From: a virus
Virus record (IMG/VR): IMGVR_UViG_3300024999_000083
Length of the DNA: 64,000 nucleotides
Direction: 5' to 3' (one strand)
This document shows, one piece after another, positions 4,325 through 62,133 of this stretch (the stretch's first letter is position 1; each line of letters begins with the position of its first letter). The notes below the pieces were generated by a model. It was not told the DNA's origin. It was given only the letters and a program-made list of their open reading frames with translations, and ran no database searches. The position numbers were made by a program, and so were the translations under genes.

Positions 4325-4497
4325 TCAAACCAAAAACAAGTTTTATGTTATTTGAAGGGAGGTGATGATATATATGTTTGTAATATTCATTCTTGCTATA
4401 GTGGTATTACTACTATTTTTAGCAATACCATTATACTCAAAAATAGGTCAGAAAGTTGAACAAGTAGAAAATAAAATTAAAGAGGAGATTAAAAATA

Positions 4498-5409
4498 ATG
4501 AGAAATAATATTAATATTGATATGAGTAATTTTAAAATGAATAAATTCACTAAAGGTTTAATTACAGTTGGAGTATCGGCAGTTGTTTTGCTTGCAGGAT
4601 TTGGGGCATCTACTACAAAAATTAATCCAGGACATGCAGGAATTGTATATAATGTATCTGGTGGTCTAGAAGATATTACATTAAGTCAAGGATGGCATAT
4701 TGTAGCACCTTGGAAGAGTGTAAGAGAATATCCAATTTCTACAGAAACAGTATGGTTGACACAAGCTAAAACAGAAGGCTCACCTAACGATGATTCCTAC
4801 AATACTTCTACAATGGAAGGTAAACCAGTTAATGTAGATGCTTATTTTACATATCATGTAAATGTAGAAAAATTACCTGCAATATTTAATCGTTTCAAAG
4901 GCGCAGACATCGAATCCATCCAATCAGGTTACCTTAAACAACAAGTGAAAACAGCTTCTCAATCAGTTACATCTAGTTATAGTGTTCTTGATTTGTACGG
5001 CAATAAGCGTTCAGAGATTCAAAATAAAATCCATGATATATTAATCAAAGAATTAACTCCATTTGGACTAGAAGTTGAGACATTTAGTTTTGGAGAAATT
5101 CGTCCTGATGCAGACACTATGAAAGCAATTCAAGCAAAAGTAGATGCCCAACAAAAACTTCAACAAATGGAAATTGAACTATCACAATCTACAGTTACAG
5201 CAAACAAAGCAAGAGTAGATGCTCAAGGGGTAGCTGATGCAGCAGTCATTAAGGCAAAAGGTGAAGCAGAAGCTAATAATCTATTACAAGCATCTTTAAC
5301 TGATACACTTGTTAAATATCAATCTGTATTGAAATGGAATGGAGCATATCCTCAAGTTGTAGGCGGCAATCAAATTATTAGTTTGCCAATGGCAGATGCA
5401 GGGAAATAA
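4498..5409 (+). CDS. SPFH/band-7 (prohibitin/HflC-like) membrane protein
   Basis: N-terminal TM segment, SPFH-like core, C-terminal Ala/Gln-rich coiled coil. Confidence 0.75.
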   Translation: MRNNINIDMSNFKMNKFTKGLITVGVSAVVLLAGFGASTTKINPGHAGIVYNVSGGLEDITLSQGWHIVAPWKSVREYPISTETVWLTQAKTEGSPNDDSYNTSTMEGKPVNVDAYFTYHVNVEKLPAIFNRFKGADIESIQSGYLKQQVKTASQSVTSSYSVLDLYGNKRSEIQNKIHDILIKELTPFGLEVETFSFGEIRPDADTMKAIQAKVDAQQKLQQMEIELSQSTVTANKARVDAQGVADAAVIKAKGEAEANNLLQASLTDTLVKYQSVLKWNGAYPQVVGGNQIISLPMADAGK

Positions 5410-15695: not shown

Positions 15696-18600
15696 TTGAC
15701 AAGACCAGAACATAGGACAGATTTACATGTTCATTCATATTATAGTTTACTTGATGGTTTACCAAGTCCTACAGATATTATTAAAAATGCGGTCAGTAAG
15801 GGTATGAAAAGCATAGCCCTTACTGACCACGGGTTTCTAGGTGGCATGGCAGAGTTTTTCTTACAAGCAAAGAAGAATAACATTAAACCTATTTACGGTG
15901 TAGAAGTATATGAAACTTCCGACACTTTAAATAAAGATAAGGACAATAGATACTACCACTTACTTGTATTATGTAAAAATAATAATGCTATGAAAGAACT
16001 CAATAAGGTGGTAAAAAGATCAACTCAAGAAGAAAACTTTTACTACAAACCAAGAATTGAAATTGATTGGTTAATACCGTTTGCAGACGATTTAATAATT
16101 GGCACAGCTTGTTTAAATGGAAGAATAAATAAAATAAACAGAGAAGAAAAAATTGAATTTATTAATAAAATGAAATCTATTTTTAAAAGTTTCTATATAG
16201 AGTTACAAAGTCATGAAACCGAAGACCAAATTACTTGTAATAAAGAATTATTAGAAATGTCAATACTAACAAATACTCCTATTATTATTACAACTGATGC
16301 TCATATGCTTAACGAAGAAGATTTAGAATTACATGGTAGATTTAAATCAATAGTTATGAATAGTAAAAAAACTCCTGATGAAATAGGTGAAGCATATAGA
16401 GATTGTTACATACAGACGGTTGATGATATTTATAAAAAAATGTCCTATCTTCCAGAAGAAGTTATTAATGAAGGTGTTATTAATAGTAACCTAATTGCTG
16501 ATATATGTAATGTTGAGATGGATTTTTATAATATAAAATTTCCAGAAATTGATATACCACCTCAATATAAAAATATTAGACAATTTATAGAATCAAGAGT
16601 TAATGAAGGTTGGAAAGAAAGAGAGTATTACTTAAAGTCACAAGAAAGGCAACAAGAGGCAAAGGAAAGAATTAAATACGAGTTAGATGTTATTGATGCA
16701 AAAGGATACTTGGATTACTTTGCAATTGTTGATGACTTTTTAATATATAATAAAGAACAAGGATATTTACCACCTAAAGGAAGGGGTTCTGCTGGAGGAA
16801 GTAGTGTAGCTTACTTTATGATGATTCATGATATTGACCCATTAGATTATGACTTATTATTTGAAAGATTTCTTAATCCAGATCCAAAAGATACTCACAT
16901 TCCTGATATCGATATAGATTTTTGCCATACTGTTAGACAAGATGTAGTTGATTATTGTATAAGAAAGTATGGAAATAGTCAGGTTTGTAATATTGGGCTT
17001 TACTCATATATGAAAGCAAAAACAGCAATTAAAGATGTTGGAAAGTCTTTAGAAGTGCCGTTTTTTGCTACCAATGAGATTTCTAAAACACTATCAGATG
17101 ACACAAAACTGTCGGAGTATATTGAAGAAGGTAAACATCAGAAATGGATTGATAAATATAGTAAATTTCAAATTAAAGAAATGTTTGAAATTGGTGCTAA
17201 ACTTCAAGGGATACCAAAAAGTTTTGGAAGTCATCCTTCTGGAAAAATAATATCAAATATGATACTTGAAGAAGCAATGGGTATGGCAGTTATTGATGGT
17301 GAAAATGTGTGTATGTATGATATGCATTACGTTGAAGACTTAGGTTTCATTAAATTTGACTTCCTTGGGCTAAAAACCAATACAACTATTTATGATACAT
17401 TAAAATTAATTGGCAAAGATTCTAAATTCATCGAGACAGCAAGATTGAATTTTAATGATGATAAAGTTTATGAACAATTTAGACTAGGTAATACTTCTGG
17501 GATATTTCAATTCAGTTCGTATAGTATGAGAGAAGTATTGTCTAAAATGAAAGTGGACTGCATAGAGGATCTAATCGCTGCAAATGCTTTATTTAGACCT
17601 GGAGCAATGGATTACATTGATGCATTTTGCCACAATAAACAACATCCAGAAGATATTAAATATGTAAACGATAGTCTTAGTGATATTCTTAAAGTTACAT
17701 ACGGGCAATTAGTGTATCAAGAACAAATGATGGCTGTTGGTAAAATGGCTAATGTTCCTTCTGTGGACGATTTACGCCGTGCGTGTGGTAAAAAGAAAAT
17801 TGATTTAATGAAAGAACAAGAAGTTTTCTTGAAAGAAGGGTTAATTAATAAAGGATGGCAACAGAAAGAAGTAGATATTATTTGGGATCAAATGGTAAAA
17901 TTTGGATCTTATGCCTTCAATAAATCGCATTCGGCTAGTTATGCCATAATTGCCTATATCACTATGTATTTAAAAGTATATTATCCTGCTGAATTTATGA
18001 CATCATTACTTAATGCGTATAGTAATGATAATCAACTAATTAGTAAATATATAGCAGAAGCACAGAGAATGGGTTTAAAAGTTAAAACTCCAAATATTAA
18101 TAAATCGGAAAAGAATTTTACAGTAGATGATGGTTCTATACTTTTTGGACTTAAAAATCTTAAAGATTGTGGAGAAGTTTTTGTAACTAAATTATTAGAA
18201 GAAAGAGGTAGAGATCCTTTTAAAAACTTCACAGATTTCTACACAAGATCAAAACCTGATAAACCATCTGTTGTTTCACTTATTAAAGCTGGAGCATTTG
18301 GTGTAAAAAACAGAGAGCAATTCTTATTGAAATTTATAGAATCTCTGTTTGAAACAAAAGAATACACTCCTGTAATATCGCCACCAACTAAAAAGGTTTT
18401 AAAAGAACAATGGGGAATAGAAGCAGATAATAAAGAAGATAGGTTGAAGTATTATAATGCTAAACGTAAAATATTATTTGACGAAGAACAAATTGTAAAG
18501 CATGAAAATCATGTTCAAGAACTAAAAGAAAAATATATGAGCAATCCAGAAATGTGGGAATATGATATTATGTCAATGTTTATTACATATAATCCATTGG

Positions 18601-18911
18601 AAAAATATAATAAATATATAACTCCTTTTGAAGATGTTGATGAAGGAAAAGAATCAGTCTTAGTTGGAGTAATCGCAAGTGTACAGAAAAAAATGGATAA
18701 ACACAAGAAACAATTTGCATTTTTAGATATTTACCAAAATGGAGATTTAATCGAAGTTATATGTTGGCACACACAATTTAAAGACTATGTAAATGAATTA
18801 GTAAGAGGGAGGGTTGTAGTTATTTTAGGTAAAAAGAGTGAAGGTAAGGTTGTTCTGAAGGAAGTAATTTCATTAGAACAGTGGAAGAATAGGAGAGAAA
18901 TTAAAGAATGA
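15696..18911 (+). CDS. dnaE: DNA polymerase III alpha subunit (DnaE-type, N-terminal PHP domain)
   Basis: PHP motif HVHSYYSLLDGL...ALTDHG; 1071 aa; polymerase core regions; stop overlaps the next start (ATGA). Confidence 0.85.
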   Translation: MTRPEHRTDLHVHSYYSLLDGLPSPTDIIKNAVSKGMKSIALTDHGFLGGMAEFFLQAKKNNIKPIYGVEVYETSDTLNKDKDNRYYHLLVLCKNNNAMKELNKVVKRSTQEENFYYKPRIEIDWLIPFADDLIIGTACLNGRINKINREEKIEFINKMKSIFKSFYIELQSHETEDQITCNKELLEMSILTNTPIIITTDAHMLNEEDLELHGRFKSIVMNSKKTPDEIGEAYRDCYIQTVDDIYKKMSYLPEEVINEGVINSNLIADICNVEMDFYNIKFPEIDIPPQYKNIRQFIESRVNEGWKEREYYLKSQERQQEAKERIKYELDVIDAKGYLDYFAIVDDFLIYNKEQGYLPPKGRGSAGGSSVAYFMMIHDIDPLDYDLLFERFLNPDPKDTHIPDIDIDFCHTVRQDVVDYCIRKYGNSQVCNIGLYSYMKAKTAIKDVGKSLEVPFFATNEISKTLSDDTKLSEYIEEGKHQKWIDKYSKFQIKEMFEIGAKLQGIPKSFGSHPSGKIISNMILEEAMGMAVIDGENVCMYDMHYVEDLGFIKFDFLGLKTNTTIYDTLKLIGKDSKFIETARLNFNDDKVYEQFRLGNTSGIFQFSSYSMREVLSKMKVDCIEDLIAANALFRPGAMDYIDAFCHNKQHPEDIKYVNDSLSDILKVTYGQLVYQEQMMAVGKMANVPSVDDLRRACGKKKIDLMKEQEVFLKEGLINKGWQQKEVDIIWDQMVKFGSYAFNKSHSASYAIIAYITMYLKVYYPAEFMTSLLNAYSNDNQLISKYIAEAQRMGLKVKTPNINKSEKNFTVDDGSILFGLKNLKDCGEVFVTKLLEERGRDPFKNFTDFYTRSKPDKPSVVSLIKAGAFGVKNREQFLLKFIESLFETKEYTPVISPPTKKVLKEQWGIEADNKEDRLKYYNAKRKILFDEEQIVKHENHVQELKEKYMSNPEMWEYDIMSMFITYNPLEKYNKYITPFEDVDEGKESVLVGVIASVQKKMDKHKKQFAFLDIYQNGDLIEVICWHTQFKDYVNELVRGRVVVILGKKSEGKVVLKEVISLEQWKNRREIKE

Positions 18912-21355
18912 TAGAATTGGAATCATCTAAAGAACTAGAAGAAAAGAAACCTGATTTAGACAAAATATATGAGTTTGTAGCAACTATTACATATTCAATA
19001 TATTACGATCAACAAAGAAATTTTGGTATATATGAGTTTACAACAGATAGTAAATTGCCATATACTAACGATTATATATACAGAGATAAAACTAGATACT
19101 TAGGTTGTTTAAGTGGAAATATGCAAGAATTATATTGTGAAACTGATTATAAGGTTGTCGCTAAACTAAAATATAATAAGAAATATAAAAAATATGATTA
19201 TTTTATTGAAAGTGTCTTTAGTGAGCAACCAAAAACACCAAATGAACAAAGAAAATTTCTAGAGGTTTTATGTACTAAAAGGCAAGCAGATATAATACTA
19301 GAATCTTATCCAAACATTATTGAAGACGTAATGACTGGAAAACATATTGATACTTCAAAATTTAAAGGAATAGGAGATAAAACATTTCAACCAATTAAAG
19401 ATAAAATATTAGAGAATTACATTATTCAAGATATTGTTGTTTTATTAAGACCTTTAGGTGTTACATTTAATACTATTAAAAAGATGTTAGGAGTTGAAGA
19501 TAATCCATCATTGCTTAAACAAAAAATAATGGAAAATCCTTATATACTGACATCTGTTCATGGGTTAGGGTTTAAAAAAGTAGATGAATTAGCCTTAAAA
19601 TTAAACCCTGATTTAAAATCAAGTTTACAAAGAACAAAGGCATTTCTATTCTATATATTTAAAGAAATTGCAAGTTCTGAAGGTCATACGTGGATTAGTA
19701 AAAGGGATTTGATTGGTTATGTGAGAAAGGATTTAAGAGAATGTATTGACATTTATAAAGACTTTATTGAACAAGAGACTGAAGATCCAATGTTGCTTTA
19801 TATTTATGATGAGAAGATTGGCCTATTAAAATACTACAATACAGCTAAAAATATTGTTGAAAGTTTATTTTGGTTAGATAGTTTAGAAAGTATGATAGAA
19901 CCTTTTACAGAAGACGAAATGGATGAATCTATAAAACAAACTGAAAAAGAATTGGGTTTTGAGTTCACTTTAGAACAGAAAAATGCTATTAAAAGTATTA
20001 ATGAACATAACGTAATAATAGTTACAGCTCCAGCAGGGGCCGGAAAATCAGTATCAATTAAAGGAATCTTCGACCTACTTACAAGAGCAAAAGTAAAAGA
20101 TAAATTTATAAGTAGCGAATATAATCAAATACATTCAGAAGATATAATGGGAAACGATGAATTTTCTACTAGTAATGAATTATGTCAAGGATTGTATGGA
20201 GATATATCTGTAATTGATGATCATTCAGTAATTAAGGTTGGTCAATCTGCTTTATCGGCAAAGGCAGCTAAAAGAATGAAAGAAGCATCAGGTGGACAAC
20301 AAGCGATGACAATGCATAGAATGCTAGGTTTTGGTGGAAATAATGGAGATGGTGGAAAGGGAGGATTTGCGTTTAAAAAGGATTTCCCAATGAAGTATCA
20401 TGTTAATGTACTTGACGAGGTTAGTTTAGTTAACAAGTCTTTAATTAATAGTTATATTAATGCAATACGACCACATAGTAAATTAGTATTAATATTTGAC
20501 TTTGCACAATTGCCACCCATCGGATCAGGAGATTTTACAAGAGATATTTTGAAAAGTAAATTATGTATTAATAAATTCACTAAAGTCCATAGGCAAGGCG
20601 AAAAAAGTGGTATATTAATGGACGCTAACAAAATAAGAGTTGGTATTAATCCAATAGAAAAATTAGAAAAGAAAATAGTTCATGGAGAATTAAGAGATAT
20701 GTTTTACAGATTTGAAACAGATAAAGAAAAAATGAGGGATATGGCGGTTGATGCCTATCTTAAATCTGTAGAAGATGTTGGTTTAGAGGAAGCAGTTATT
20801 ATCACTCCAAGAAAACGTAAATGTATTAATAGTGCTACTGAACTGAATAAGATCATACAAGATAAATTGATCCCTTATGGGGTAAAAAGTTTGACAAGGT
20901 GGAAAGATGGAGAACAATGTATTTTTAAACTTGGTGCAAAAGTTATGCAAAAGAAAAATAATTATGATAAGGATAAGATGGTTTTTAATGGCGATGAAGG
21001 TTATATAACCGATATTGATAAAAATGGTTTTACTATAAGTTTTACTCTTGAAAATGGTAAAAGAGAAGTTATTTATACTAATAGTGAATTAGACCAAATT
21101 GAATTATCATATGCTAACACAATTCATAGTGTTCAAGGATCTCAATTCCACTCAGTAATTTGTGTCTTTGATTCAAGTAGTTTTATAATGTTAAATCGCA
21201 AAATATTGTATACCGCAATTACTAGAGCAAGAAAGAAATGTATGCTTATTAGTGAACCAAGGGCTTTTAAAGTATGCTTAGACGATGAAAACAATAAACC
21301 ACGAAATACATTTTTAAGTGAAATGTTTGAGGTATATAATGAAGAAAGGAAGTAA
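18908..21355 (+). CDS. RecD-like SF1 DNA helicase (AAA_30/UvrD_C_2)
   Basis: Walker A VTAPAGAGKS; Walker B LDEVS; motif VI-like SVQGSQF...YTAITRARKKCML. Confidence 0.8.
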   Translation: MIELESSKELEEKKPDLDKIYEFVATITYSIYYDQQRNFGIYEFTTDSKLPYTNDYIYRDKTRYLGCLSGNMQELYCETDYKVVAKLKYNKKYKKYDYFIESVFSEQPKTPNEQRKFLEVLCTKRQADIILESYPNIIEDVMTGKHIDTSKFKGIGDKTFQPIKDKILENYIIQDIVVLLRPLGVTFNTIKKMLGVEDNPSLLKQKIMENPYILTSVHGLGFKKVDELALKLNPDLKSSLQRTKAFLFYIFKEIASSEGHTWISKRDLIGYVRKDLRECIDIYKDFIEQETEDPMLLYIYDEKIGLLKYYNTAKNIVESLFWLDSLESMIEPFTEDEMDESIKQTEKELGFEFTLEQKNAIKSINEHNVIIVTAPAGAGKSVSIKGIFDLLTRAKVKDKFISSEYNQIHSEDIMGNDEFSTSNELCQGLYGDISVIDDHSVIKVGQSALSAKAAKRMKEASGGQQAMTMHRMLGFGGNNGDGGKGGFAFKKDFPMKYHVNVLDEVSLVNKSLINSYINAIRPHSKLVLIFDFAQLPPIGSGDFTRDILKSKLCINKFTKVHRQGEKSGILMDANKIRVGINPIEKLEKKIVHGELRDMFYRFETDKEKMRDMAVDAYLKSVEDVGLEEAVIITPRKRKCINSATELNKIIQDKLIPYGVKSLTRWKDGEQCIFKLGAKVMQKKNNYDKDKMVFNGDEGYITDIDKNGFTISFTLENGKREVIYTNSELDQIELSYANTIHSVQGSQFHSVICVFDSSSFIMLNRKILYTAITRARKKCMLISEPRAFKVCLDDENNKPRNTFLSEMFEVYNEERK

Positions 21356-23517: not shown

Positions 23518-25806
23518 TTGAAAGTACAAAAAAGAAATAGCACATTGGTTGACTTTGATAAAAATAGTATCATTCGAGCAATTGAAAAAGCTATGCTTGA
23601 AACAAAAGAAGGAATTGATACTAAACTAAGTCATGATATTGCAAATAAAATTGAGTCTATTGGATTAGAAGTATACTCAGTTGAAAATATTCAAGATTTT
23701 GTGGAAGATATTTTAATGGAAAGCAATAGAAAGGATGTAGCAAAGAGATATATTATCTATCGCAATCAAAGAGATAAGGTTCGCAAAAACAAAGTAAAAG
23801 GACTTCTTAGTGAAGAGTTTATAAGCAAATATAAACATTTACCTTCACCAATGAATCAATTAGGAAGTTTTGTTTATTATCGTACATATAGTAGATGGCT
23901 TCCAGATGAACAAAGAAGAGAATATTGGTGGGAAACTGTAAAAAGAGCAGTGGAATATAATTGCAGTTTAGTTCCAACTTCTAAAGAAGAAGCAGAAAAA
24001 CTATATGATAATATTTATAATCTTAGGCAGTTTTTATCAGGTAGAACATTTTGGGTAGGAGGAACACAAGTAGCTTATAAGTATCCCTGTTCCAACTTCA
24101 ATTGTGCCTTCATTATTATTAATAGTATTAAATCATTTGAAGAATTATTTTATTTGCTTATGGTAGGAACAGGTGTTGGAGTAAGAGTTTTAAAAGCAGA
24201 TGTAGATAAATTACCTAAAATTAAAAATAATATTGATATTATACATAAAGAATACAATCCTTTACCTAAAGATGGTAGAGAAGACTACACTTCTTTAAAA
24301 TTTAAAAAAGATATTGCTACTATAATTATGGGTGATTCTAAAGAAGGTTGGAGTAAGGCACTATATTATTATCTAGAATTACTAACCAACAGTTATTATG
24401 AAAATATTAAATTAATTGTTTTGGATTATGATAATGTTAGACCAAAAGGAGAGAGACTAAAAACATTTGGTGGAACTGCTTCTGGACACGAAAGTATAAA
24501 GAATATGTTTAAAAAAATACATACTATAGTTAAAGATTCAAATAAAAAATTAAGCACGTTAAATTGTTTAGATATTGCTAATATAATTGGTGAAAACGTG
24601 GTTGTTGGTGGAGTAAGAAGGACAGCGGAGAACGGTCTTATTGACCATGATGATGATGAATCAATAAATGCAAAAAATAACTTATATATACAATCAGAAG
24701 GACAATGGATCGAAAATAAAGAAATATCTCATAGGAAAATGAGTAATAATTCAATTTTTTATACTGAAAAACCAACTAGAGAAAAATTGCATTGGCAAAT
24801 AGAGAAAATGAGATATTCAGGAGAACCAGCATTTGCTAATGCAGAAGCAGCATCCAAACGAAGAGTTAATTTTGAAGGACTTAACCCTTGTTTTGAGGTT
24901 TTATTGCAATCAAAAGGACTATGTAATTTAATTACATCCAATGTAATGAGCTTTGTCTTTAATGGAAAATTAAATATAGAAATGCTTTTAGAAGCGCAAA
25001 AATTAGCCGTAAGAGCAGGATACAGAATGACTTGTGTAGATTTAGAGTTACATGAATGGGATTTAGTTCAAAAGGAAGATAGGTTGTTAGGTTGCTCATT
25101 AACTGGTTGGCAGGATATGGTTAACGCAACTAATATGTCTTTACAAGAACAAAAAGAGACATTGATAAAACTCAAAGATGTTGCCATAGAAGAATCAAAA
25201 AAATATTCATCTCAATTAAATATGAAAGAACCATTATTGGTTACTACCGTGAAACCAGAAGGAACTTTGAGTTTATTACCCGGAGTATCTAGTGGAGTAC
25301 ATTATTCTCACTCGCCATTCTACATTAGAAGAATTAGAATTAATTCAGATGATCCTTTAGTAAAAGTTTGTGAAGAATTAAGTTATCCAGTTTTTGATGA
25401 TGGTATAAATACAAAAGTAATTGAATTCCCTGTAAAGTCTCCTAAAGGAAAAACTAAATATGATGTATCTGCAATTGAACAATTAGGAATATATAAAATG
25501 TTTCAAGAATGTTATGTACAACATAATACTAGCATTACCATTCATGTTAGAGAGAATGAATGGGATGAAGTTGAACAATGGTTATGGGACAATTGGGATG
25601 ATGTGATTGGAGTGTCATTCTTATCTTTAAGTGATAGTTTTTATCATTTAATGCCATATGAAACAATTACAGAAGAAGAATATAATAAAAGAGTTAAGGA
25701 AATGAATCCATTTATTCCATCATTGCTTTCAAAATATGAAAAAGAAGAAGTTGAACTAGATATTGGTAATGATGGATGTTCTTCTGGTTTATGTCCCATA
25801 CGCTAA
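23518..25806 (+). CDS. ribonucleotide reductase large subunit with N-terminal ATP-cone (class I/II-like active site NPCFE; class not resolved)
   Basis: ATP-cone KVQKRNSTLVDFDKNSIIRAIEKA; active-site finger NPCFEV; C-terminal Cys pair GCSSGLC; no NrdB seen. Confidence 0.75.
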   Translation: MKVQKRNSTLVDFDKNSIIRAIEKAMLETKEGIDTKLSHDIANKIESIGLEVYSVENIQDFVEDILMESNRKDVAKRYIIYRNQRDKVRKNKVKGLLSEEFISKYKHLPSPMNQLGSFVYYRTYSRWLPDEQRREYWWETVKRAVEYNCSLVPTSKEEAEKLYDNIYNLRQFLSGRTFWVGGTQVAYKYPCSNFNCAFIIINSIKSFEELFYLLMVGTGVGVRVLKADVDKLPKIKNNIDIIHKEYNPLPKDGREDYTSLKFKKDIATIIMGDSKEGWSKALYYYLELLTNSYYENIKLIVLDYDNVRPKGERLKTFGGTASGHESIKNMFKKIHTIVKDSNKKLSTLNCLDIANIIGENVVVGGVRRTAENGLIDHDDDESINAKNNLYIQSEGQWIENKEISHRKMSNNSIFYTEKPTREKLHWQIEKMRYSGEPAFANAEAASKRRVNFEGLNPCFEVLLQSKGLCNLITSNVMSFVFNGKLNIEMLLEAQKLAVRAGYRMTCVDLELHEWDLVQKEDRLLGCSLTGWQDMVNATNMSLQEQKETLIKLKDVAIEESKKYSSQLNMKEPLLVTTVKPEGTLSLLPGVSSGVHYSHSPFYIRRIRINSDDPLVKVCEELSYPVFDDGINTKVIEFPVKSPKGKTKYDVSAIEQLGIYKMFQECYVQHNTSITIHVRENEWDEVEQWLWDNWDDVIGVSFLSLSDSFYHLMPYETITEEEYNKRVKEMNPFIPSLLSKYEKEEVELDIGNDGCSSGLCPIR

Positions 25807-44070: not shown

Positions 44071-44418
44071 ATGTTTAATAATGAGATGTTTGAAACTAAT
44101 CAAATCATTGAAATGAAGGATGAAATATTCTATGGACTTACAGGCAAACAAACAATTTATTTAATATCTGGGATAGTTTTAAGTTTATCTATATTTAATA
44201 CTGCATTACCTATTATTGCAAAACTATTCATTCTACCAAATATCGGTATTCCTACTGCAATTCTAGTTAAAACTGATATTGATCAAGGAATAGTTTCTTT
44301 CTTCAAATTTAAGTGGAGAGGGGTGACAAAACAAAATGTTACAATACAATCTTTACCCAAAAGTAAATTATCTTTTAGTAACAAAAGAAGAACAAACACT
44401 ACTCCGATCCAAGTTTAA
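44071..44418 (+). CDS. small membrane protein (VirB3-like)
   Basis: AGGAGG RBS; two TM helices; overlaps the next ATPase gene in another frame. Confidence 0.4.
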   Translation: MFNNEMFETNQIIEMKDEIFYGLTGKQTIYLISGIVLSLSIFNTALPIIAKLFILPNIGIPTAILVKTDIDQGIVSFFKFKWRGVTKQNVTIQSLPKSKLSFSNKRRTNTTPIQV

Positions 44419-45841
44419 ATATCTATTAAATTCTCTAAATGAACCGTCTAGAATCATTTGTAGAACTGACTCAAATAAATTGAATAAAGACACACAAATC
44501 AATGAATCAATTTATCATTTAATAACTAATGCTGATATTTATGAGAATTTAAGTAATTCTGAAATAGATTATACTCAAAATAAATGTCCTACATCAAATA
44601 TTCAAGTAAAAGAACATCGAAAATATATTGCTATTACTGAAAACAATGAAAAATATTTTGCTAAATCAATCAAGGTTATCCAATTTCCACAAATGCTTTC
44701 TACTGGATTCATAAACAACTTAATGATTTCTGACACTGAAATTGCCCTTACAATCTTTCCATTGCCACAAGAAGAGGCTGTGAAGGCAGTAAAAAAGAGA
44801 ATTGATACTAATGAAGCAAATGTAAATTGGAAGGTCGTAAAGAACCCTAATCAAGAGTTTTATGTAGAAGATGAAATTGTACTAAAACTTCAAAAGACTA
44901 TGGTTGATCTTATGGGTAATGAAGAAAAACTTTGTATGGTTGGATTATATATCTTAATTAAAGGACAAACACTTAAACAATTGGAAACAAAAGCAAAACA
45001 AATATCAATGCTTTTGGATGGAATGCAAATTAGGTTTAAATTCGCTAATTATGAACATTTTAATTGTTTTAAGAATTTTAGAGCATATAAAGAAATTGAT
45101 TATGTAAATGAGTTAAAAGTATTTTTGACAAGTGTAATTAGTAATTTTTATCCATTTGTTAGATATGTATCAGGGGATGGAGTTATTATCGGATATGATT
45201 ATCAAAATTATCAATTGATTAAAATTAATTTTTCAGAACTCTTCAATCTGTCATGGTTTATTTTCGGAATTTCAGGAAGTGGAAAGTCATTTGCTGTAAA
45301 GAGCATTGTAAAGAAAATATCTAGTCATAAGAAGATTTATATTCTTGATATTACTGGTGAATATGCCAAACTAAAATCAAAGAATATTATCATAATATCT
45401 AAAGATTTTGAGAAATTTCTATTATACACTGATTTTAAAGATTGCATGATTATAATTGATGAAGCATGGGATATTTTAAAAACTGATAAAGTTATTAAAA
45501 GAGTAGTAGCAATAGCGAAAGGATATAGAAAGAGGGGAGTAGGTGTTTTAGTCTGCACTCAAAACATTGCTGATACAAGTAAAGAGGATATTGAATTAAT
45601 TATTAAAAACTGTGCTAATACTTTAATTCTTCATTTGACTTCACTAGAACTTCAACATATTAGCGAATACATGAATATACCTCATCATATTATTGATTAT
45701 CTTTCTAGGATTGAAAAAGGACAAGGGTGGATGACCATAGGAACAAAGCAATATGCTTTTAGACCAATATTTAGTGATGAAGATTACTTGTTATTCAATA
45801 CTAATTATGAGGAAATGAAAGGGGTTGGTTATAATGGGTGA
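44336..45841 (+). CDS. VirB4/TraC-like conjugative ATPase
   Basis: Walker A GISGSGKS; Walker B MIIIDEAWD. Confidence 0.6.
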   Translation: MLQYNLYPKVNYLLVTKEEQTLLRSKFKYLLNSLNEPSRIICRTDSNKLNKDTQINESIYHLITNADIYENLSNSEIDYTQNKCPTSNIQVKEHRKYIAITENNEKYFAKSIKVIQFPQMLSTGFINNLMISDTEIALTIFPLPQEEAVKAVKKRIDTNEANVNWKVVKNPNQEFYVEDEIVLKLQKTMVDLMGNEEKLCMVGLYILIKGQTLKQLETKAKQISMLLDGMQIRFKFANYEHFNCFKNFRAYKEIDYVNELKVFLTSVISNFYPFVRYVSGDGVIIGYDYQNYQLIKINFSELFNLSWFIFGISGSGKSFAVKSIVKKISSHKKIYILDITGEYAKLKSKNIIIISKDFEKFLLYTDFKDCMIIIDEAWDILKTDKVIKRVVAIAKGYRKRGVGVLVCTQNIADTSKEDIELIIKNCANTLILHLTSLELQHISEYMNIPHHIIDYLSRIEKGQGWMTIGTKQYAFRPIFSDEDYLLFNTNYEEMKGVGYNG

Positions 45842-56309: not shown

Positions 56310-56924
56310 CTATATTGCGGTTAGGAGTTGATTTGATTTTATGTAATCATCGTAGTACATCCATTTGAGAGGTTCGTTGGTAATTGGGTGTTTCCCTGCG
56401 TATTCACTAATTCCTCTACAACATGAACATATGCCACTGCTGCTAAATATACCATATTTCTTACGAGCATCTGTTTGTGACTTAAATATCTCCCCTGTAT
56501 TTAAGCATATTACTTTTTTACTACGTCTCTCACTAGTTAAAGCATATTGTTTTTCTAATTCTACTTTAGCATCATAATCGCACCATTTTAATTCGACTCC
56601 CTGTTTTAAATATTTTCTAACGGATGTTGTGCTAATTTTTAATTGTTCGGCTATTAATAGTGTGTTTTTTAAACCATTTTCCCATAAATCACAAACTGTT
56701 TTAACCAAACTACTACAAGCATATTTGTGGCATTTTAACCAATCTATATCTGATTCCTTAAAATTAAATAATTGTGGTAATTCTGAATTCATAATGCTAT
56801 TCTTTATGTACTTCCATTCAGATTTTAAACTATCAATTCTTATAATTTTTACATTATTTTCTCTACACAGTCTATCTTTTTCATCATCAATATATTTAAC
56901 ATTTTCTTTAGTTTTATCAAACAT
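56310..56924 (-). CDS. homing-endonuclease-like protein (HTH plus NUMOD-like DNA-binding motif)
   Basis: ISTTSVRKYLKQG (HTH) and KVICLNTGEIFKSQTDARKKYGI (NUMOD-like) motifs. Confidence 0.35.
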   Translation of the reverse strand: MFDKTKENVKYIDDEKDRLCRENNVKIIRIDSLKSEWKYIKNSIMNSELPQLFNFKESDIDWLKCHKYACSSLVKTVCDLWENGLKNTLLIAEQLKISTTSVRKYLKQGVELKWCDYDAKVELEKQYALTSERRSKKVICLNTGEIFKSQTDARKKYGIFSSSGICSCCRGISEYAGKHPITNEPLKWMYYDDYIKSNQLLTAI

Positions 56925-57877
56925 TTTAATATTCTTTGTATGAAATCCCCATCCATTTCAACTCCATATTGTTTTGTGTTTATTTTAAAATATAAGTCTA
57001 TCCTGCCTTTATGCAATTCTTCTTTATATTCATATTTCAACCAACTAAAAGATTTCTCCGTTTTGAAATCTTTGATTATTTTTAATTTTCTTATTTGTTC
57101 CATAAAATTAAATCCAAATTTATTAGGATAACTAATTCCGTCACTACATTTATTACAACCAAAACCATGCCTTACTAATGTGTCAAATGACAATTCTTTT
57201 TCGTACCCACATTCTGGACATTTCGTAGGTATATTAATTCCAGAACCTTTTGAATATTTCTTTGAGTCGTCTTTATTTATTAAGAATATATCTAAATATG
57301 GATTGGTTACTGATACTGAATTACATAATTTACACTCAAGACTCCTCCTGCTATGTGTAAAACAACTTATACTTTTCAATTCAGATTCATGTTCTGGGTG
57401 ATCAAGGCACTTAAACCAATAACCTTGTTTTTCATACCCACCAGAACTATAACTAACGTCTTTAGGACTTAACATATTGCCTTTTCTATCAACATTTAAT
57501 TCATAATCCCATCTGCTTAATATGTAGTCTGCCAATTCTTTAAGTAGATTTTCATAACACCAATCGTAAAAAGATAGACTATTTTTTAATCTTGATTTTC
57601 TATAGTTTTCAGATCCATATAAAACTATAGCACAGTTATTACAATAATATGTTCCGTCTTCTTTTACGCATTTTTTATAATCTTTCCATTTTACTTTCTT
57701 TAACTTACCACATTTGTTACATTCAACTTCAACTGATATATTAGATCCATTTTGCAAATCTTCGATTTTAACTTCAAATTCATCTTTAAACTTTGTAAAT
57801 GCGTGACCCTTTCCTTCATACCATTTTTTATTGTTTGAATGCCATTTAACGTAAAACTCTTTTGTCAATAATCCCAT
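56849..57877 (-). CDS. multi zinc-ribbon protein
   Basis: At least five CxxC pairs (CNKCGK, CNNCA, CKLCNS, CPECG, CNKCSDG). Confidence 0.45.
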   Translation of the reverse strand: MGLLTKEFYVKWHSNNKKWYEGKGHAFTKFKDEFEVKIEDLQNGSNISVEVECNKCGKLKKVKWKDYKKCVKEDGTYYCNNCAIVLYGSENYRKSRLKNSLSFYDWCYENLLKELADYILSRWDYELNVDRKGNMLSPKDVSYSSGGYEKQGYWFKCLDHPEHESELKSISCFTHSRRSLECKLCNSVSVTNPYLDIFLINKDDSKKYSKGSGINIPTKCPECGYEKELSFDTLVRHGFGCNKCSDGISYPNKFGFNFMEQIRKLKIIKDFKTEKSFSWLKYEYKEELHKGRIDLYFKINTKQYGVEMDGDFIQRILKCLIKLKKMLNILMMKKIDCVEKIM

Positions 57878-57977
57878 TAATTTTCTCTCCTCCTGATCAG
57901 GGAGGGTAGCTACCCATACACTTGCAAGTTATATCCCGTATATATTTATTTTTTAATTTAAAAACCATTTTTGAACT

Positions 57978-58145
57978 TAATACTTAAAACTTTTCATAGT
58001 TTCATTATCTACAAGAAATCTGATTTGATGTCCACATTTTGAACAAGAAAATACTCCAATTGCATTTCCAGTAGTTGGATTATAACTGATATTTGATGGT
58101 TTATATAGTATTTGACACGTTTCACAAATTATTAAATTTCTCATA
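57978..58145 (-). CDS. small zinc-ribbon protein (about 55 aa)
   Basis: MRNLIICETCQ...CSKCGHQ; coordinates approximate. Confidence 0.3.
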
Positions 58146-58469
58146 ATACGCTCCTTTGCTTGTGCGTTTTGTAATTTATTTCGTGGTCGTTTGAAACGTC
58201 CTCGGATTATATATATGCGAAATATTATTTATTAACGTTTGTCTAATTATTTATTAACGTAAATTTACACTCACCTAAAACTAGACCAATTTCCACATCT
58301 AATATCTATTGGTTCAAACACATACATAAATCTTCTTCTCTTGTTAAATATAATTGATATTTCCTTTAATCCTTTGTGTTTCCCATGTTTATGAAACCAC
58401 ATTCCTTTATTTCTAATTTTTACGGCAGTTTTAGAATTCATAGAACACCACATCCTTTTATTAATTTAA

Positions 58470-58646
58470 TCAAATCCATCTGGTTCTCTCTTTCAAATAA
58501 ATCAATATCAATCCTACTCCTATATTGCATCCTGCCAATAAATATTTTCCATTTACAATATTGGCAATAGCATTAACTCCACCAAATATTATCCAAAAAG
58601 TTAATTCTTGTTTGTAAGTTAATTTTCTTAATTTCATATATTCCAT
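58470..58646 (-). CDS. small two-TM membrane protein just downstream of cas12f (coordinates approximate)
   Basis: MEYMKLRKLTYKQELTFWIIFGGVNAIANIVNGKYLLAGCNIGVGLILIYLKERTRWI, translated by hand from the minus strand. Confidence 0.3.
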   Translation of the reverse strand: MEYMKLRKLTYKQELTFWIIFGGVNAIANIVNGKYLLAGCNIGVGLILIYLKERTRWI

Positions 58647-58684
58647 CACTTTCTTCTAAAATTTTACTTATATGCAATTACAAT

Positions 58685-60013
58685 CTAACTAACCTTCTTA
58701 TCCTTAAACTTACTCATCATCTTCAGTTGCTCCACAATAATACTATCAATCATAGGAATGCTAATATTCTTGGCGGCATTTATATCTGCATTTTCTTCAT
58801 GTCCACATGTAACACACTTAAACTTTGCCTGATTACTCTTACAATCTCTATTAGCATCATCTATACATCCACAATGACTACATCGCTTGCTTGTGTACTT
58901 TGGGTCAATCAAAATAAATTTAATACCCTTTTCTTCACATTTATACTTAGTTTTATTTTGGAGATCAAAATATGACCAATTCTTTAAAAATTTCTCAGAT
59001 TGTTGTTCTGAAAATCCACTTAGATTTTCCATTTGAATAGTTCCACAATTGTATTTTAATGCAGTATCAACTATATTTTTGCTAACTTTATGATTATATG
59101 TATCTCTAAATTTTCCAACTTTGTCTCTCATTTTATCTACTGGTTTTAATCTAACTTTCCTACCATGTCCTATTCTTCCGTTGCCAACTATTTTACTAGC
59201 AATATACATTTGTTTATTTCTTGCTTCAATCTTTTGCCGATAATGTATTAATTCACTACCATTAATTTTGCATTCTTTCCATGATATTCTATCCCATTTT
59301 TCTGTAGAAATATCAAATACTTGCATTGTTGCAGTATTCACAATTCCTAAGTCAACTCCTAATACTTTATTCATATCCAATTGCCTTACGACTGGTTCAA
59401 AACTAAAACTAATTATAAGATACCATTTGCCTCTTTTATCTTCAATAATTTGTGCTGATCCTTGTTTATATATACCTAAGATTATCTTATTTAATATTGA
59501 TTTCCTACTATTGTCCAAACTATCAATAAGAAAACTTACTCGTTTTATATCATTTTCTTTTTGATATTTAAGATTAAATAAACTGCATTTTACTTCGAAC
59601 CCTTTATTTCCTTGAGTTATCGTATAATTCTTATTATGGACAATGAGTGGAATACTCTGTTTAAAATTTGATAATGATACCTGACCTTTAAATAGTCCTT
59701 TTTTAATATCGTCTTTAAATCTATTACTTACAAATTGTCTAGTTTGAGCTACATTGCCACTATTATGTATATTCATAACTTCATTCATTCTGTTCTCTAC
59801 CCAAGATCCATGACTCTTACCATATCTATCTTTTTCATTTATAGTAGTACCATTCATTTGTTTGTGTTCCATATTTTCTACAGCAAAAGTGTAACAATAT
59901 GTTATTGCTTTATTTGAAGCTAACCATGATTGATATCTCAAATCTTTCAGTGTTTGTTTATAATTGCTTATTTCATTACAATTTTTTATTGCGATTTTAA
60001 TACATTTATTCAT
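58685..60013 (-). CDS. cas12f: Cas12f-like (type V-F) miniature RNA-guided nuclease
   Basis: RuvC-I LGVDLGIVN; RuvC-II CGTIQMENLS; Zn finger CSHCG...CVTCG; RuvC-III ENADINAAKNIS; long collinear similarity to AsCas12f1 as I remember it (WYLNISYDFEP/WYLIISFSFEP; GTIQMEDL/GTIQMENL; IDPQYTSQRCSECG/IDPKYTSKRCSHCG); sits next to the CRISPR array. Confidence 0.9.
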   Translation of the reverse strand: MNKCIKIAIKNCNEISNYKQTLKDLRYQSWLASNKAITYCYTFAVENMEHKQMNGTTINEKDRYGKSHGSWVENRMNEVMNIHNSGNVAQTRQFVSNRFKDDIKKGLFKGQVSLSNFKQSIPLIVHNKNYTITQGNKGFEVKCSLFNLKYQKENDIKRVSFLIDSLDNSRKSILNKIILGIYKQGSAQIIEDKRGKWYLIISFSFEPVVRQLDMNKVLGVDLGIVNTATMQVFDISTEKWDRISWKECKINGSELIHYRQKIEARNKQMYIASKIVGNGRIGHGRKVRLKPVDKMRDKVGKFRDTYNHKVSKNIVDTALKYNCGTIQMENLSGFSEQQSEKFLKNWSYFDLQNKTKYKCEEKGIKFILIDPKYTSKRCSHCGCIDDANRDCKSNQAKFKCVTCGHEENADINAAKNISIPMIDSIIVEQLKMMSKFKDKKVS

Positions 60014-60080
60014 AATATCTCATCATCCTTTTATATGATTCGTTTTATATGAAAAATAATACTTCCACACCTAGTATAAG

Positions 60081-60622
60081 TCTCGTATCTTATTGTATAC
60101 ACAAGTTTTAACAATAAAGAATAATGCTTAAGTGTTTGCCGGACATCTTGCATCATATATGTATATACAAGTTGTAACGAGGAATTTGAATTATAACTGG
60201 CTCACGGTCTTTCTTACATTCTTATACATATATGCAAGTCGTAACAAACCATGGTCTTGCTGTTCAACTTCTTGATTCTTGCAAATTGTAACGATCACTC
60301 ACCAGTGATTCAAAATTATCCCCTAGTCTTACAACTTATATGTATATGCAAGTTGTAACTTGATATTTCACCTTTAAACGCTCCAATAAGTCTTACACAT
60401 TATACATATATACAAGTTGTAACTTGTTTAATAGAAGCAAAGTATAAATCCAAGCATCTTACATCTTATATACATATACAAGTTGTAACGTAATGGTAGA
60501 TTTTCAGCTTCTTTTATTCGATCTTCTTACATCTTATATACATATACAAGTTGTAACTCTCGGAGAATTCGGAACTGAAGAGATACAAATCTTACATCTT
60601 ATATACATATACAAGTTGTAAC
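60081..60622. CRISPR. CRISPR array of about 9 repeats, consensus CTTACATCTTATATACATATACAAGTTGTAAC (32 nt)
   Basis: Near-identical repeats at 60328, 60392, 60458, 60526 and 60591; degenerate copies at 60081, about 60145, 60213 and about 60261; unique 32-36 nt spacers (one 15 nt next to a degenerate repeat). Confidence 0.85.
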
Positions 60623-60639
60623 TGCACCCCTCTACAAAC

Positions 60640-60830
60640 CAATCACACCAACCATTACAACTCATAAAAATGCGAACATATTAAATTATTACAACTTGAA
60701 TATACATATAAGATGTGCTGACGGTATTTGTGCCAGCAGTTTCAATAGGTGCGAATGTACTAGTGTTCTTATGTATGCTTATCATTCGCATTATTCCCAT
60801 TACCTTATCGAGAGCAATTCAACCTTATAA
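60640..60830. ncRNA. tracrRNA-like element: anti-repeat plus three hairpins
   Basis: 60688-60717 ATTACAACTTGAATATACATATAAGATGTG approximates the reverse complement of the repeat; hairpins TGCTG..CAGCA, GCGAATG..CATTCGC and CCTTAT..ATAAGG follow. Confidence 0.5.
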
Positions 60831-61084
60831 ATAAGGATTTACAAACCCTTCTTCGATTCATAGGCCACTAAGTCTGCCTTTATTTGAATTGTGATTGTGA
60901 ACTTAATAATTTACTTATGTACAAACTAACTACATTCACTAATTTACAATTTTCATCTCACCACATCCTCTTGTTAAAATATTTATTTATTACTTCAACC
61001 TATAACCAGTTTACCATAAGTGGAAATGCTTGTCAAGTTTTAACTTTGTAAACTTTATTTATCAATTTAATTACCTCTAATCCT

Positions 61085-61294
61085 TTAAATTTTACAAATA
61101 GATTTCATTATTTCCTCCGACTTTTTCTTATCTTCTTCAATTTCCATTTTCCATTTGATAATCTCTTTTTCTGATTCAAACATCAGTTCTCGTTGTTTGT
61201 TTATTTCATTTAACATCTCTTGCTTACGATCTTTTAGATTTTTCCCATTAATGCGTATGCCTATGTATCTCACTCCCATAATCATTTCTCTCAC
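61085..61294 (-). CDS. hypothetical charged coiled-coil protein
   Basis: ORF. Confidence 0.35.
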   Translation of the reverse strand: MREMIMGVRYIGIRINGKNLKDRKQEMLNEINKQRELMFESEKEIIKWKMEIEEDKKKSEEIMKSICKI

Positions 61295-61392
61295 CTCACT
61301 TCCTCTTGTCTCTACTATACCACACCGACTACTTCAATGTCAAATATTTATTTTACAATTTATACAGAAGAAAGAGGAAAGGGAATTATTTA

Positions 61393-61857
61393 CTATTCCC
61401 TCGCATTGCCCATCTCTGCTTCAGACTCTTCCTTCATTCTCAAAGACATTTTAGAAATCATATCATCAGATATCTTTCTAATTTCAATCCATTTTTCTAA
61501 ATCTTCATTTGCTTTAATCATGTCTCCAATATCACCATTGGCAATAATTGAATAGAAGTTACAATATTCTTTGTATTGATCTTCAGTAAAGGAAAATTGA
61601 TTATCCCCTTTAGTTACTTTATGCTCTTGTATCGGCAACTTATATCCCAATACCTCATATTTAATTCCAATTTCAGTATTCTCATCCTTTACAAAATCAT
61701 AAGGTACATCAAGATATCCTTCAATTACATCCTTTATTGCATCTTCAATCATTGGTTGATTATCTTTTGGAAATTCATCAAGATCAAATACTTTAGCCGG
61801 ATCAATTTCAACCTCTAATATTGCAGTCATAATAAGCTTTACTCTTGCTTTTGTCAT
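61393..61857 (-). CDS. hypothetical acidic protein
   Basis: ORF. Confidence 0.5.
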   Translation of the reverse strand: MTKARVKLIMTAILEVEIDPAKVFDLDEFPKDNQPMIEDAIKDVIEGYLDVPYDFVKDENTEIGIKYEVLGYKLPIQEHKVTKGDNQFSFTEDQYKEYCNFYSIIANGDIGDMIKANEDLEKWIEIRKISDDMISKMSLRMKEESEAEMGNARE

Positions 61858-61875
61858 TTAAATCATTCTCCTTAA

Positions 61876-62133
61876 CTAATTTTTATGATCATAATTAATC
61901 ATTGGTGATTTTTCAATTACTTTAGTTATTTCGCCAACATTACCTTTACCATCATCTTCTATAATTACATATGAAATTTGAAATGTTGGGTCATTCTTTA
62001 AAAATTCGGTAGGATCATTTGTTATTAATTTGTTAAAATCCTCAATAATTTCAATAGTGTTTGAAGTTAAAGACTCTGGGATAATCATATCCATTGTTGA
62101 TGTTAGGGTATATCTTACTCTTTTCTGTTTCAT
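61876..62133 (-). CDS. hypothetical protein (short paralog of 62188-62676)
   Basis: RYTLTSTMDMIIPE...NTIEIIEDF...DGKGNVGEITK matches RYTLTATIDLVIPH...NVIEIVENF...DGKGNVSKMTK. Confidence 0.5.
   Translation of the reverse strand: MKQKRVRYTLTSTMDMIIPESLTSNTIEIIEDFNKLITNDPTEFLKNDPTFQISYVIIEDDGKGNVGEITKVIEKSPMINYDHKN

Follow-up and report, generated by a model that had tools for sequence, protein, structure and literature searches.

From which strand is the putative trans-activating RNA (tracrRNA) beside the CRISPR (short palindromic repeats, clustered and regularly interspaced) array of a metagenomic phage read, and where does this RNA begin and end? The stretch of DNA analysed here, called the window, comprises 64,000 nucleotides (nt) of the IMG/VR virus record IMGVR_UViG_3300024999_000083 and is part of a large, AT-rich phage genome. 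It carries a cas12f gene, a CRISPR array and, beside the array, an inverted copy of the repeat, the anti-repeat. A preliminary description had placed a tracrRNA at 60640-60830 and had called its polarity ambiguous. Read on the plus strand, the anti-repeat precedes the hairpins as in Cas9 systems; read on the minus strand, the hairpins come first and the anti-repeat stands at the 3' end, which is the Cas12b/e/f layout. Sequence comparison is able to resolve this polarity and predicts that the tracrRNA is read on the minus strand, like cas12f. Very probably, a phage-borne type V-F1 (V-U3, AsCas12f-like) CRISPR-Cas system has its tracrRNA encoded on the minus strand from about 60879 to 60689. The minus strand is assigned because of four lines of evidence, namely sense-strand homology to the guide RNA of AsCas12f1, strand-specific G.U pairs, a covarying pseudoknot and a constant orientation in 96 of 96 matches.

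Homology, covariation and the strand that is read

To collect relatives, metagenomes, genomes and viral contigs were scanned on the basis of an alignment, which yielded 226 loci in total; an initial contig scan with a single protein query had given no matches. Close relatives of the protein lie on IMG/VR contigs of 47-139 kb. Among GenBank phage isolates, no close relative of either the Cas12f protein or the tracrRNA was found. With the minus strand of the window from 60900 to 60623 as query, nhmmer recovered homologous blocks from about 37 loci, in each case on the strand of cas12f and, bar a second copy in L086, a locus from a Bacillota metagenome-assembled genome (MAG), upstream of this gene. 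Wherever the match is full length, a gap of about 66 nt separates the block from the repeats downstream. A profile made solely from the relatives of the window matched the single-guide RNA (sgRNA) of AsCas12f1 from Acidibacillus sulfuroxidans on the sense strand (33.6 bits, E 6.9e-9 with a nominal search space of 1 Mb); the alignment joins sgRNA nt 7-132 to profile positions 6-178. The AsCas12f1 sgRNA, tracrRNA and CRISPR RNA (crRNA) sequences were taken from Table S1 of PMC11662939 and the supplement of PMC8548392. A search of Rfam with 57500-62000 (E <= 10) gave chance-level matches only, and no curated family fits.

On the raw MAFFT alignment RNAalifold returned almost no consensus for either strand because of misaligned indels. 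It was replaced by the structure derived from AsCas12f1, including the repeat:anti-repeat duplex and the pseudoknot, which was transferred to the MAFFT alignment of 30 loci and tested via pair counts over 73 modelled pairs. In this alignment, 86% of the cells are paired, as compared to 26-43% after sliding of the 3' partners over 1-3 columns, and 42 of the 73 pairs show changes on both sides, as compared to 20-29 when slid. Column shuffles attained the observed values in 0 of 500 trials. A covariance model built on stems 1-4 produced 96 matches (E <= 1e-3) in 99 loci, all of them on the cas12f strand; its sole significant match in the window spans 60715-60881 on the minus strand (170 bits, E 4e-42). 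When 82 distinct sequences were aligned to the model, 91.8% of the cells were paired (27-38% slid) and double-change cells numbered 575 (48-82 slid); stems 1, 2 and 4 were 77-99% paired, with almost every pair covarying. This second alignment is fitted to a sense-strand model and is biased to structure, whereas the MAFFT count is free of that bias. The sequence features, the homology to a validated guide, the covariation and the strand asymmetry are observations; together they support the tracrRNA call of the preliminary description.

Wobble pairs distinguish the strands, since each G.U pair of one strand turns into C.A, a mismatch, on the opposite one. Across all modelled pairs, the ratio of G.U to A.C is 207:69 in the MAFFT alignment and 200:30 in the covariance-model alignment, the latter ratio being inflated by construction. 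The predicted energies, given below, of the repeat:anti-repeat duplex and of the core fold are likewise lower on the minus strand than on the plus strand. For the strand assignment, the pseudoknot, formed by the loop of stem 1 and the 3' end of the repeat, is the most telling feature. Its partners change together, to CUUG:CAAG in six sequences, to UUUCA:UGAAA in L168 and to CUCG:CGAG in L100. Pairing of a tracrRNA 5' element with the 3' end of the repeat is general for Cas12 tracrRNAs (10.1101/2025.01.20.633832). The CUUA:UAAG pairing of the window makes sense only if the minus strand gives rise to both RNAs and the repeat is followed, on its 3' side, by the spacer.

For these reasons it is extremely improbable that the polarity is Cas9-like, i.e. 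that a plus-strand RNA has its anti-repeat at the 5' end, followed by hairpins, with a precursor crRNA divergent from cas12f. An inverted repeat is complementary on either strand, and duplex prediction in both polarities gave a stable repeat:anti-repeat pairing (minus strand -31.1 kcal/mol, plus strand -27.0, shuffled anti-repeats -7.1 +/- 2.6). Moreover, several palindrome-like helices are able to form on both strands, and the plus-strand repeat end GTTGTAAC superficially recalls type V repeat ends. However, the AsCas12f1 sgRNA homology runs in the opposite sense, G.U exceeds A.C by about 3:1 to 7:1 (the upper value being the inflated one), and the pseudoknot requires the minus-strand 3' end of the repeat. 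A plus-strand promoter-like site near 60620-60690 and a terminator after the hairpins are both missing, the degenerate repeats would fall at the leader end, and the effector is Cas12f, not Cas9. With type II tracrRNAs the RNA has in common that it acts in trans and that its anti-repeat pairs with the CRISPR repeat, but their 5' anti-repeat, the nexus and terminator hairpins that follow and the Cas9 effector do not apply here. The Cas9-like alternative of the preliminary description is rejected by the strand-sensitive tests, and its alternative with hairpins first and a 3' anti-repeat proved correct. Beyond the RNA gene treated here, counting G.U against A.C over covarying helices offers a method to settle the transcribed strand of a palindrome-rich RNA gene from sequences, with no need of expression data.

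Anatomy of the predicted tracrRNA and its pairing with the repeats

The features of the locus are compiled in Table 1. The conserved RNA contains five helices, S1, S2 (in three segments), S3a, S3b and S4. Stem-loops following the anti-repeat, as proposed earlier, do exist, and the conserved RNA reaches to 60879. The limits 60640-60830 were wrong on both sides: position 60830 halves stem 2 and omits stem 1 together with the pseudoknot loop, and 60640-60688 consists of a conserved gap or tail, not of hairpins. Upstream of the block, the sub-lineages have no related sequence in common; therefore the conserved unit begins at about 60881-60884. By analogy with the extents of the AsCas12f1 tracrRNA bound in the ribonucleoprotein (RNP), which continues about 23 nt beyond its anti-repeat (PMC8548392 and supplement), the ends of the mature tracrRNA may lie beyond the core, near 60891 (about 12 nt to the 5' side) and near 60666 (about 23 nt to the 3' side).

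Table 1. Predicted RNA elements, repeats and genes of the window, with positions counted from its first letter
Feature	Position	Strand	Remarks
Predicted tracrRNA core, 191 nt, stem 1 to anti-repeat	60689..60879	- (read 60879 to 60689)	From covariance model, relatives and AsCas12f1 sgRNA
Stem 1, AGGCAG/UGGCCU, with loop	60862..60879	-	Both sides changed in 4 of 6 pairs
Pseudoknot (R:AR-2)	Loop CUUA 60869-60872 with UAAG at repeat 3' end (R1: 60591-60594)	-	Covariation
Stem 2, basal AUCGA/UCGAU, middle GGUUUG/UGAAUU, distal CCUUA/UAAGG	60807..60857	-	77-99% paired, many double changes
Stem 3, outer helix AAUGGG/CCUAUU	60796-60801 with 60744-60749 (stem 60744..60801)	-	Covaries G.U to G-C
Stem 3, inserted hairpin UGCGAAUG...CAUUCGCA	60783-60790 with 60750-60757	-	Six core pairs invariant
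Stem 4, GCUGGC-ACAAAUACC-GUCAGC	60717..60737	-	One G.U; 99% of cells paired, 6 of 6 pairs with changes on both sides (82 sequences)
Anti-repeat	60689..60716	-	Partner of nt 2-29 in every 33-nt repeat (R:AR-1)
Gap from anti-repeat to R1, 66 nt	60623..60688	-	tracrRNA 3' tail and/or array leader
CRISPR array	60082..60622	-	Nine 33-nt repeats (GTTACAACTTGTATATGTATATAAGATGTAAGA), spacers of 31-35 nt
cas12f, 442 aa, AsCas12f-like	58685..60013	-	Directly after the array
Candidate promoter, TTGACA-17-TAAACT with TG	61008..61036	-	Best minus-strand promoter-like site before the tracrRNA, about 125 nt 5' of stem 1
DNA polymerase	15696-18911
Exonuclease V/Dda-like helicase	18908-21355
Ribonucleotide reductase	23518-25806
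Large terminase	44336-45841
Homing-endonuclease-like open reading frame (ORF)	56849-57877

The order of elements is that of the AsCas12f1 RNA: stem 1 with a loop pairing with the repeat 3' end, stem 2 with its CGAGAAG...CUCGGUAAGGUA core, stem 3, stem 4, an AC linker and the anti-repeat. Element by element, stem 1 reads AGGC-AGACUUAGUG-GCCU in the window and GUCG-GUUCAG-CGAC in AsCas12f1. The core of stem 2 can be aligned as well (AUCGA(A)GAAG...CUCUCGAUAAGGUAAU in the window; GCCGAGAAG...CGCUCGGUAAGGUAGCC, also given as CCGAGAAG...CGCUCGGUAAGGUAGCC, in AsCas12f1); its middle segment holds four G.U pairs in the window, as compared to one each in stems 3 and 4. Stem 3 is AAUGGG...CCUAUU followed by GAAACU, and its counterpart is GUAGCC-AAAA-GGCUGAAACU. 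Stem 4, with the counterpart CCGUGC-ACAAAGACC-GCACGG, follows the shared pattern xxxxGC-ACAAAxACC-Gxxxx. Both tracrRNAs are long (169 nt in AsCas12f1, about 190-215 nt here). Unlike AsCas12f1, which has an AAAA loop, the window carries a conserved hairpin of 41 nt in stem 3, its repeat:anti-repeat duplex, of 27 pairs, spans almost the full length with hardly an interruption, CUUA:UAAG replaces GUUCA:UGAAC as the pseudoknot, and the host is an AT-rich phage instead of a thermoacidophilic bacterium. Un1Cas12f1 (Cas14a1) resembles the window in having hairpins first, a 3' anti-repeat, a pseudoknot with the repeat 3' end and a dimeric effector. In contrast, its protein similarity is far weaker (E ~1e-25), its locus has cas1, cas2 and cas4, and the organisation of its stems differs (10.1101/2023.07.03.547593).

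An anti-repeat had been described at 60688-60717; the inverted copy is indeed present and measures 28 nt within the limits of Table 1. It shows Watson-Crick complementarity at 25 of 28 positions (89%) to the three perfect repeats and 93% complementarity to two older repeats, and two of its three mismatches to the perfect repeats are G.U wobbles on the minus strand. Among the 27 modelled pairs of the duplex (R:AR-1), 24 are Watson-Crick, two are G.U and one is a mismatch (25 + 2 over the 28-nt inverted repeat). Across loci, 18 of the 27 pairs have changes on both sides. The distance to the nearest perfect repeat (R1, 60590-60622), given earlier as 66 nt, is exactly that.

The array has a period of 64-68 nt and eight unique spacers. 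The perfect repeats (60457-60489, 60525-60557 and 60590-60622) adjoin the tracrRNA, and degeneracy grows towards 60082 on the cas12f side. The imperfect palindrome TATATACATATA noted before in the repeat is there, along with a larger one, TTACA(A/T)CTT...AAGTTGTAA. On the minus strand the repeat reads GUUACAA...GAUGUAAGA and is followed by the spacer, the same orientation as in the AsCas12f1 crRNA (GUUUGCG...GUGUGAAC, then spacer). The array is assigned to the minus strand because of the polarity of the tracrRNA, the resemblance of the repeat 3' end GUAAGA to GUGAAC of AsCas12f1 and the degeneration at the distal end.

Two observations on the repeats stand apart. Repeat 6 (R6, 60279-60294) is internally deleted to 16 nt (GTTACAATTTGCAAGA), and R6 together with the preceding spacer (60285-60313) forms a minus-strand promoter-like sequence, TTGAAT-17-TACAAT, inside the array; such a site could drive the distal repeats and cas12f. 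In the close relative L014 (about 1265-1300), the first repeat has its central TATATG/TATATA palindrome expanded to a long (TA)n run, which suggests slippage or an assembly artefact at the palindromic core of the repeat.

The 66-nt spacing, one array period, and the similarity of the anti-repeat to the repeat in direct sense (75% identity, family D2) raise the question whether it is nothing but a degenerate terminal repeat of a system lacking a tracrRNA, whose crRNA folds on itself as in Cas12a or Cas12j. The hairpin of the repeat on the minus strand (-8.1 kcal/mol) would fit as well. Still, this explanation is very improbable: the direct identity exists because the repeat itself is quasi-palindromic and is exceeded by the inverted complementarity of 89-93%, the anti-repeat covaries with the repeats as a duplex in the 18 double-change pairs, and it is fused to a conserved scaffold of 160 nt homologous to a validated tracrRNA. 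Furthermore, AsCas12f needs a tracrRNA (10.1101/2023.07.03.547593), and a duplex of -31 kcal/mol outcompetes a hairpin of -8 kcal/mol.

For the tracrRNA on the minus strand, we infer the following course from transcription to target. The tracrRNA would comprise about 190-215 nt with stems 1, 2, 3 (with its inserted hairpin) and 4 and would end in an anti-repeat of 27-28 nt. The array would be transcribed on the same strand, the first 29 nt of each repeat pairing with the anti-repeat and its last bases UAAG with the stem-1 loop CUUA, so that the spacer, as with every type V guide, comes to lie on the 3' side of the scaffold. Cleavage of the long duplex presumably falls to an RNase of the host, for which RNase III is the usual candidate. 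An AsCas12f1 dimer binds one tracrRNA:crRNA pair and cleaves DNA flanked by a protospacer adjacent motif (PAM) (PMC8548392, PMC7229846, 10.1101/2023.07.03.547593); presumably, a dimer of the phage Cas12f likewise would assemble with its RNA pair into an RNP and act as a nuclease on PAM-flanked double-stranded DNA of its biological targets.

Effector, locus order and points against the minus-strand tracrRNA

Residues 20-431 of the Cas12f protein align to the AsCas12f structures 8j1j, 7wju and 8dzj in PDB (E ~1e-88), and the Pfam domain Cas12f1-like_TNB is recognised at 2.7e-21. The RuvC residues D221/E329/D410 and the zinc finger C378/C381/C400/C403 are invariant among relatives. As commonly in V-U3 loci, AsCas12f1 included, no adaptation genes (cas1, cas2 or cas4) were seen in the 64 kb of the window. 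In NCBIfam, the protein passes only the cut-off of the generic model 'guided_TnpB' (171.6 vs 100 bits) and fails those of Cas12f2 and Cas12e, and databases label its relatives 'transposase'. This could point to the omega RNA (also reRNA) of a transposon-borne TnpB rather than a CRISPR tracrRNA. The two RNAs indeed share scaffold ancestry, the protein family and a pseudoknot at the scaffold end beside the guide. Yet an omega RNA is contiguous, overlaps the 3' end of tnpB and has a single guide fixed by the transposon end, whereas here the RNA is split into a scaffold, which lies 5' of the gene beyond the array, and nine repeats with unique spacers of 31-35 nt. In addition, the nearest solved relatives of the protein are CRISPR-associated Cas12f1 enzymes. 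Hence we consider an omega RNA highly unlikely.

Besides the inflated ratio mentioned above, several points weigh against a minus-strand tracrRNA of the AsCas12f1 kind. In the subgroup of the window, an A.C mismatch occupies one basal position of stem 2, although pairing is restored in a register with a bulged A. The fold of the core alone is no better than shuffles on either strand (minimum free energy -40.6 kcal/mol, z -0.76, minus; -33.2, z +0.13, plus); the energy of folding a single sequence carries no significance, and it is comparison, not thermodynamics, on which the case rests. Intrinsic terminators that would bound the RNA were not found on the minus strand from 61380 to 59800. A search for promoters on both strands produced the minus-strand candidate of Table 1 and none on the plus strand near 60620-60690, but promoter-like sites in the region are no commoner than expected by chance, and a position shared by all relatives was not found. 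Protospacers of the array numbered 0 among GenBank phages, and thus PAM and targets give no independent check of orientation. Finally, the minus-strand order is tracrRNA, conserved 66-nt gap, nine repeats and 442-aa Cas12f, while in published Cas12f loci, including that of AsCas12f1, the tracrRNA lies between gene and array (PMC8548392).

Concerning locus order, the distant relatives L100 and L073 have the published order of gene, tracrRNA and array. L086 carries a tracrRNA with a short array on each side of one cas12f gene (2419-2891 and 4381-4727) and links the published order with that of the window and its clade (tracrRNA, array, gene). The order is a feature of arrangement and not of mechanism. 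In four other distant loci, L063, L065, L067 and L070, a few kb of the gene strand hold two or three tracr-like scaffolds, which may be multiple modules or multiple gene copies.

Further searches for protospacers were likewise negative: the eight spacers had none in the window and the 226 loci, three spacers searched as exact 20-mers had none in IMG/VR, and 56 spacers of related arrays, compared with all loci, matched only through a mis-parsed 'spacer' inside cas12f. As to transcription, a single minus-strand transcript covering tracrRNA, array and cas12f, as suggested in the preliminary description, is possible, given the lack of terminator-like sites from 61380 to 59800. The candidate promoter has the same sequence in L001, and in L002, L008 and L011 stem 1 is immediately preceded by a different promoter-like site. 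Farther upstream on the minus strand (60885-61400) there is, in order, a terminator-like hairpin (61400..61381), a near-consensus promoter with TG (61343..61314, TTGACA-18-TATAGT), an ORF of 69 aa (61085-61294) between this promoter and the candidate promoter at 61036..61008, and a mini-ORF of five codons with a strong ribosome-binding site and its ATG at about 60955; relatives carry different mini-ORFs there.

The conserved gap, the inserted hairpin and implications

What sets this locus apart from the known family is the permuted order and two small conserved elements of unexplained function; otherwise it has the expected Cas12f layout. The first element lies in the gap between anti-repeat and R1, which measures 64-69 nt in 30 of 30 loci, i.e. 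one repeat-spacer period. The gap contains TTCGCA (60671-60676), a U-run (60666-60670), the repeat-3'-like GAGTTGTAAT (60654-60663) and TTGGTGTGAT (60642-60651), which resembles an extended -10 in relatives (TGGTATGAT); a consensus secondary structure was not found within it. TTCGCA follows the anti-repeat after 13 nt, is (nearly) invariant and repeats the 3' arm of the hairpin in stem 3, as a third copy; in L046 all three have changed in concert (CGCGAA, TTCGCG, TTCGCG). By analogy, the TTCGCA motif may be the 3' tail of the tracrRNA, since the AsCas12f1 tracrRNA also extends about 23 nt past its anti-repeat. We also considered the gap as a degenerate repeat with a fixed spacer, hence a built-in guide. 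This candidate was dropped as weakly supported: the repeat-3'-like similarity peaks 31 nt before R1 at 0.44, vs a background of about 0.29, and the fixed 'spacer' has no target in the window.

The second element is the hairpin of 41 nt inserted in stem 3 (60750-60790, UGCGAAU..AAGCAUACAUAA..AUUCGCA), the most conserved part of the RNA. A near-identical hairpin, loop included, is found in L100 (4291-4335) and L073 (4208-4251), whose Cas12f is only about 37% identical; there the stop codon of cas12f immediately precedes the hairpin, which is located 5' of stem 1. It is conceivable, though unlikely, that TTCGCA and the U-run form a functional switch or processing signal which decides between a discrete tracrRNA and read-through into the array. 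TTCGCA would then either pair alternatively with the 5' arm of the hairpin (UGCGAA...UUCGCA) or be recognised as a sequence. Stopping or cutting would give a discrete tracrRNA, and read-through a natural guide in which tracrRNA and repeat 1 are linked in cis. If true, the module would be a portable biogenesis element of Cas12f1 guide RNAs, present in no published sgRNA and placed 5' of stem 1 in distant relatives.

For CRISPR biology the tracrRNA described here is expected and not surprising to a specialist, but it helps in designing guides and informs the natural history of phage CRISPR systems. It provides a usable definition of a guide, i.e. strand, ends, helices, pseudoknot and repeat orientation, for a very small AsCas12f-like phage nuclease, from which a single guide can be designed directly. 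The tracrRNA-array module is able to sit on either side of the gene. Moreover, large phages of a lineage known solely from metagenomes carry Cas12f1 systems that have small arrays and a tracrRNA of their own, presumably for use against competitors or hosts.

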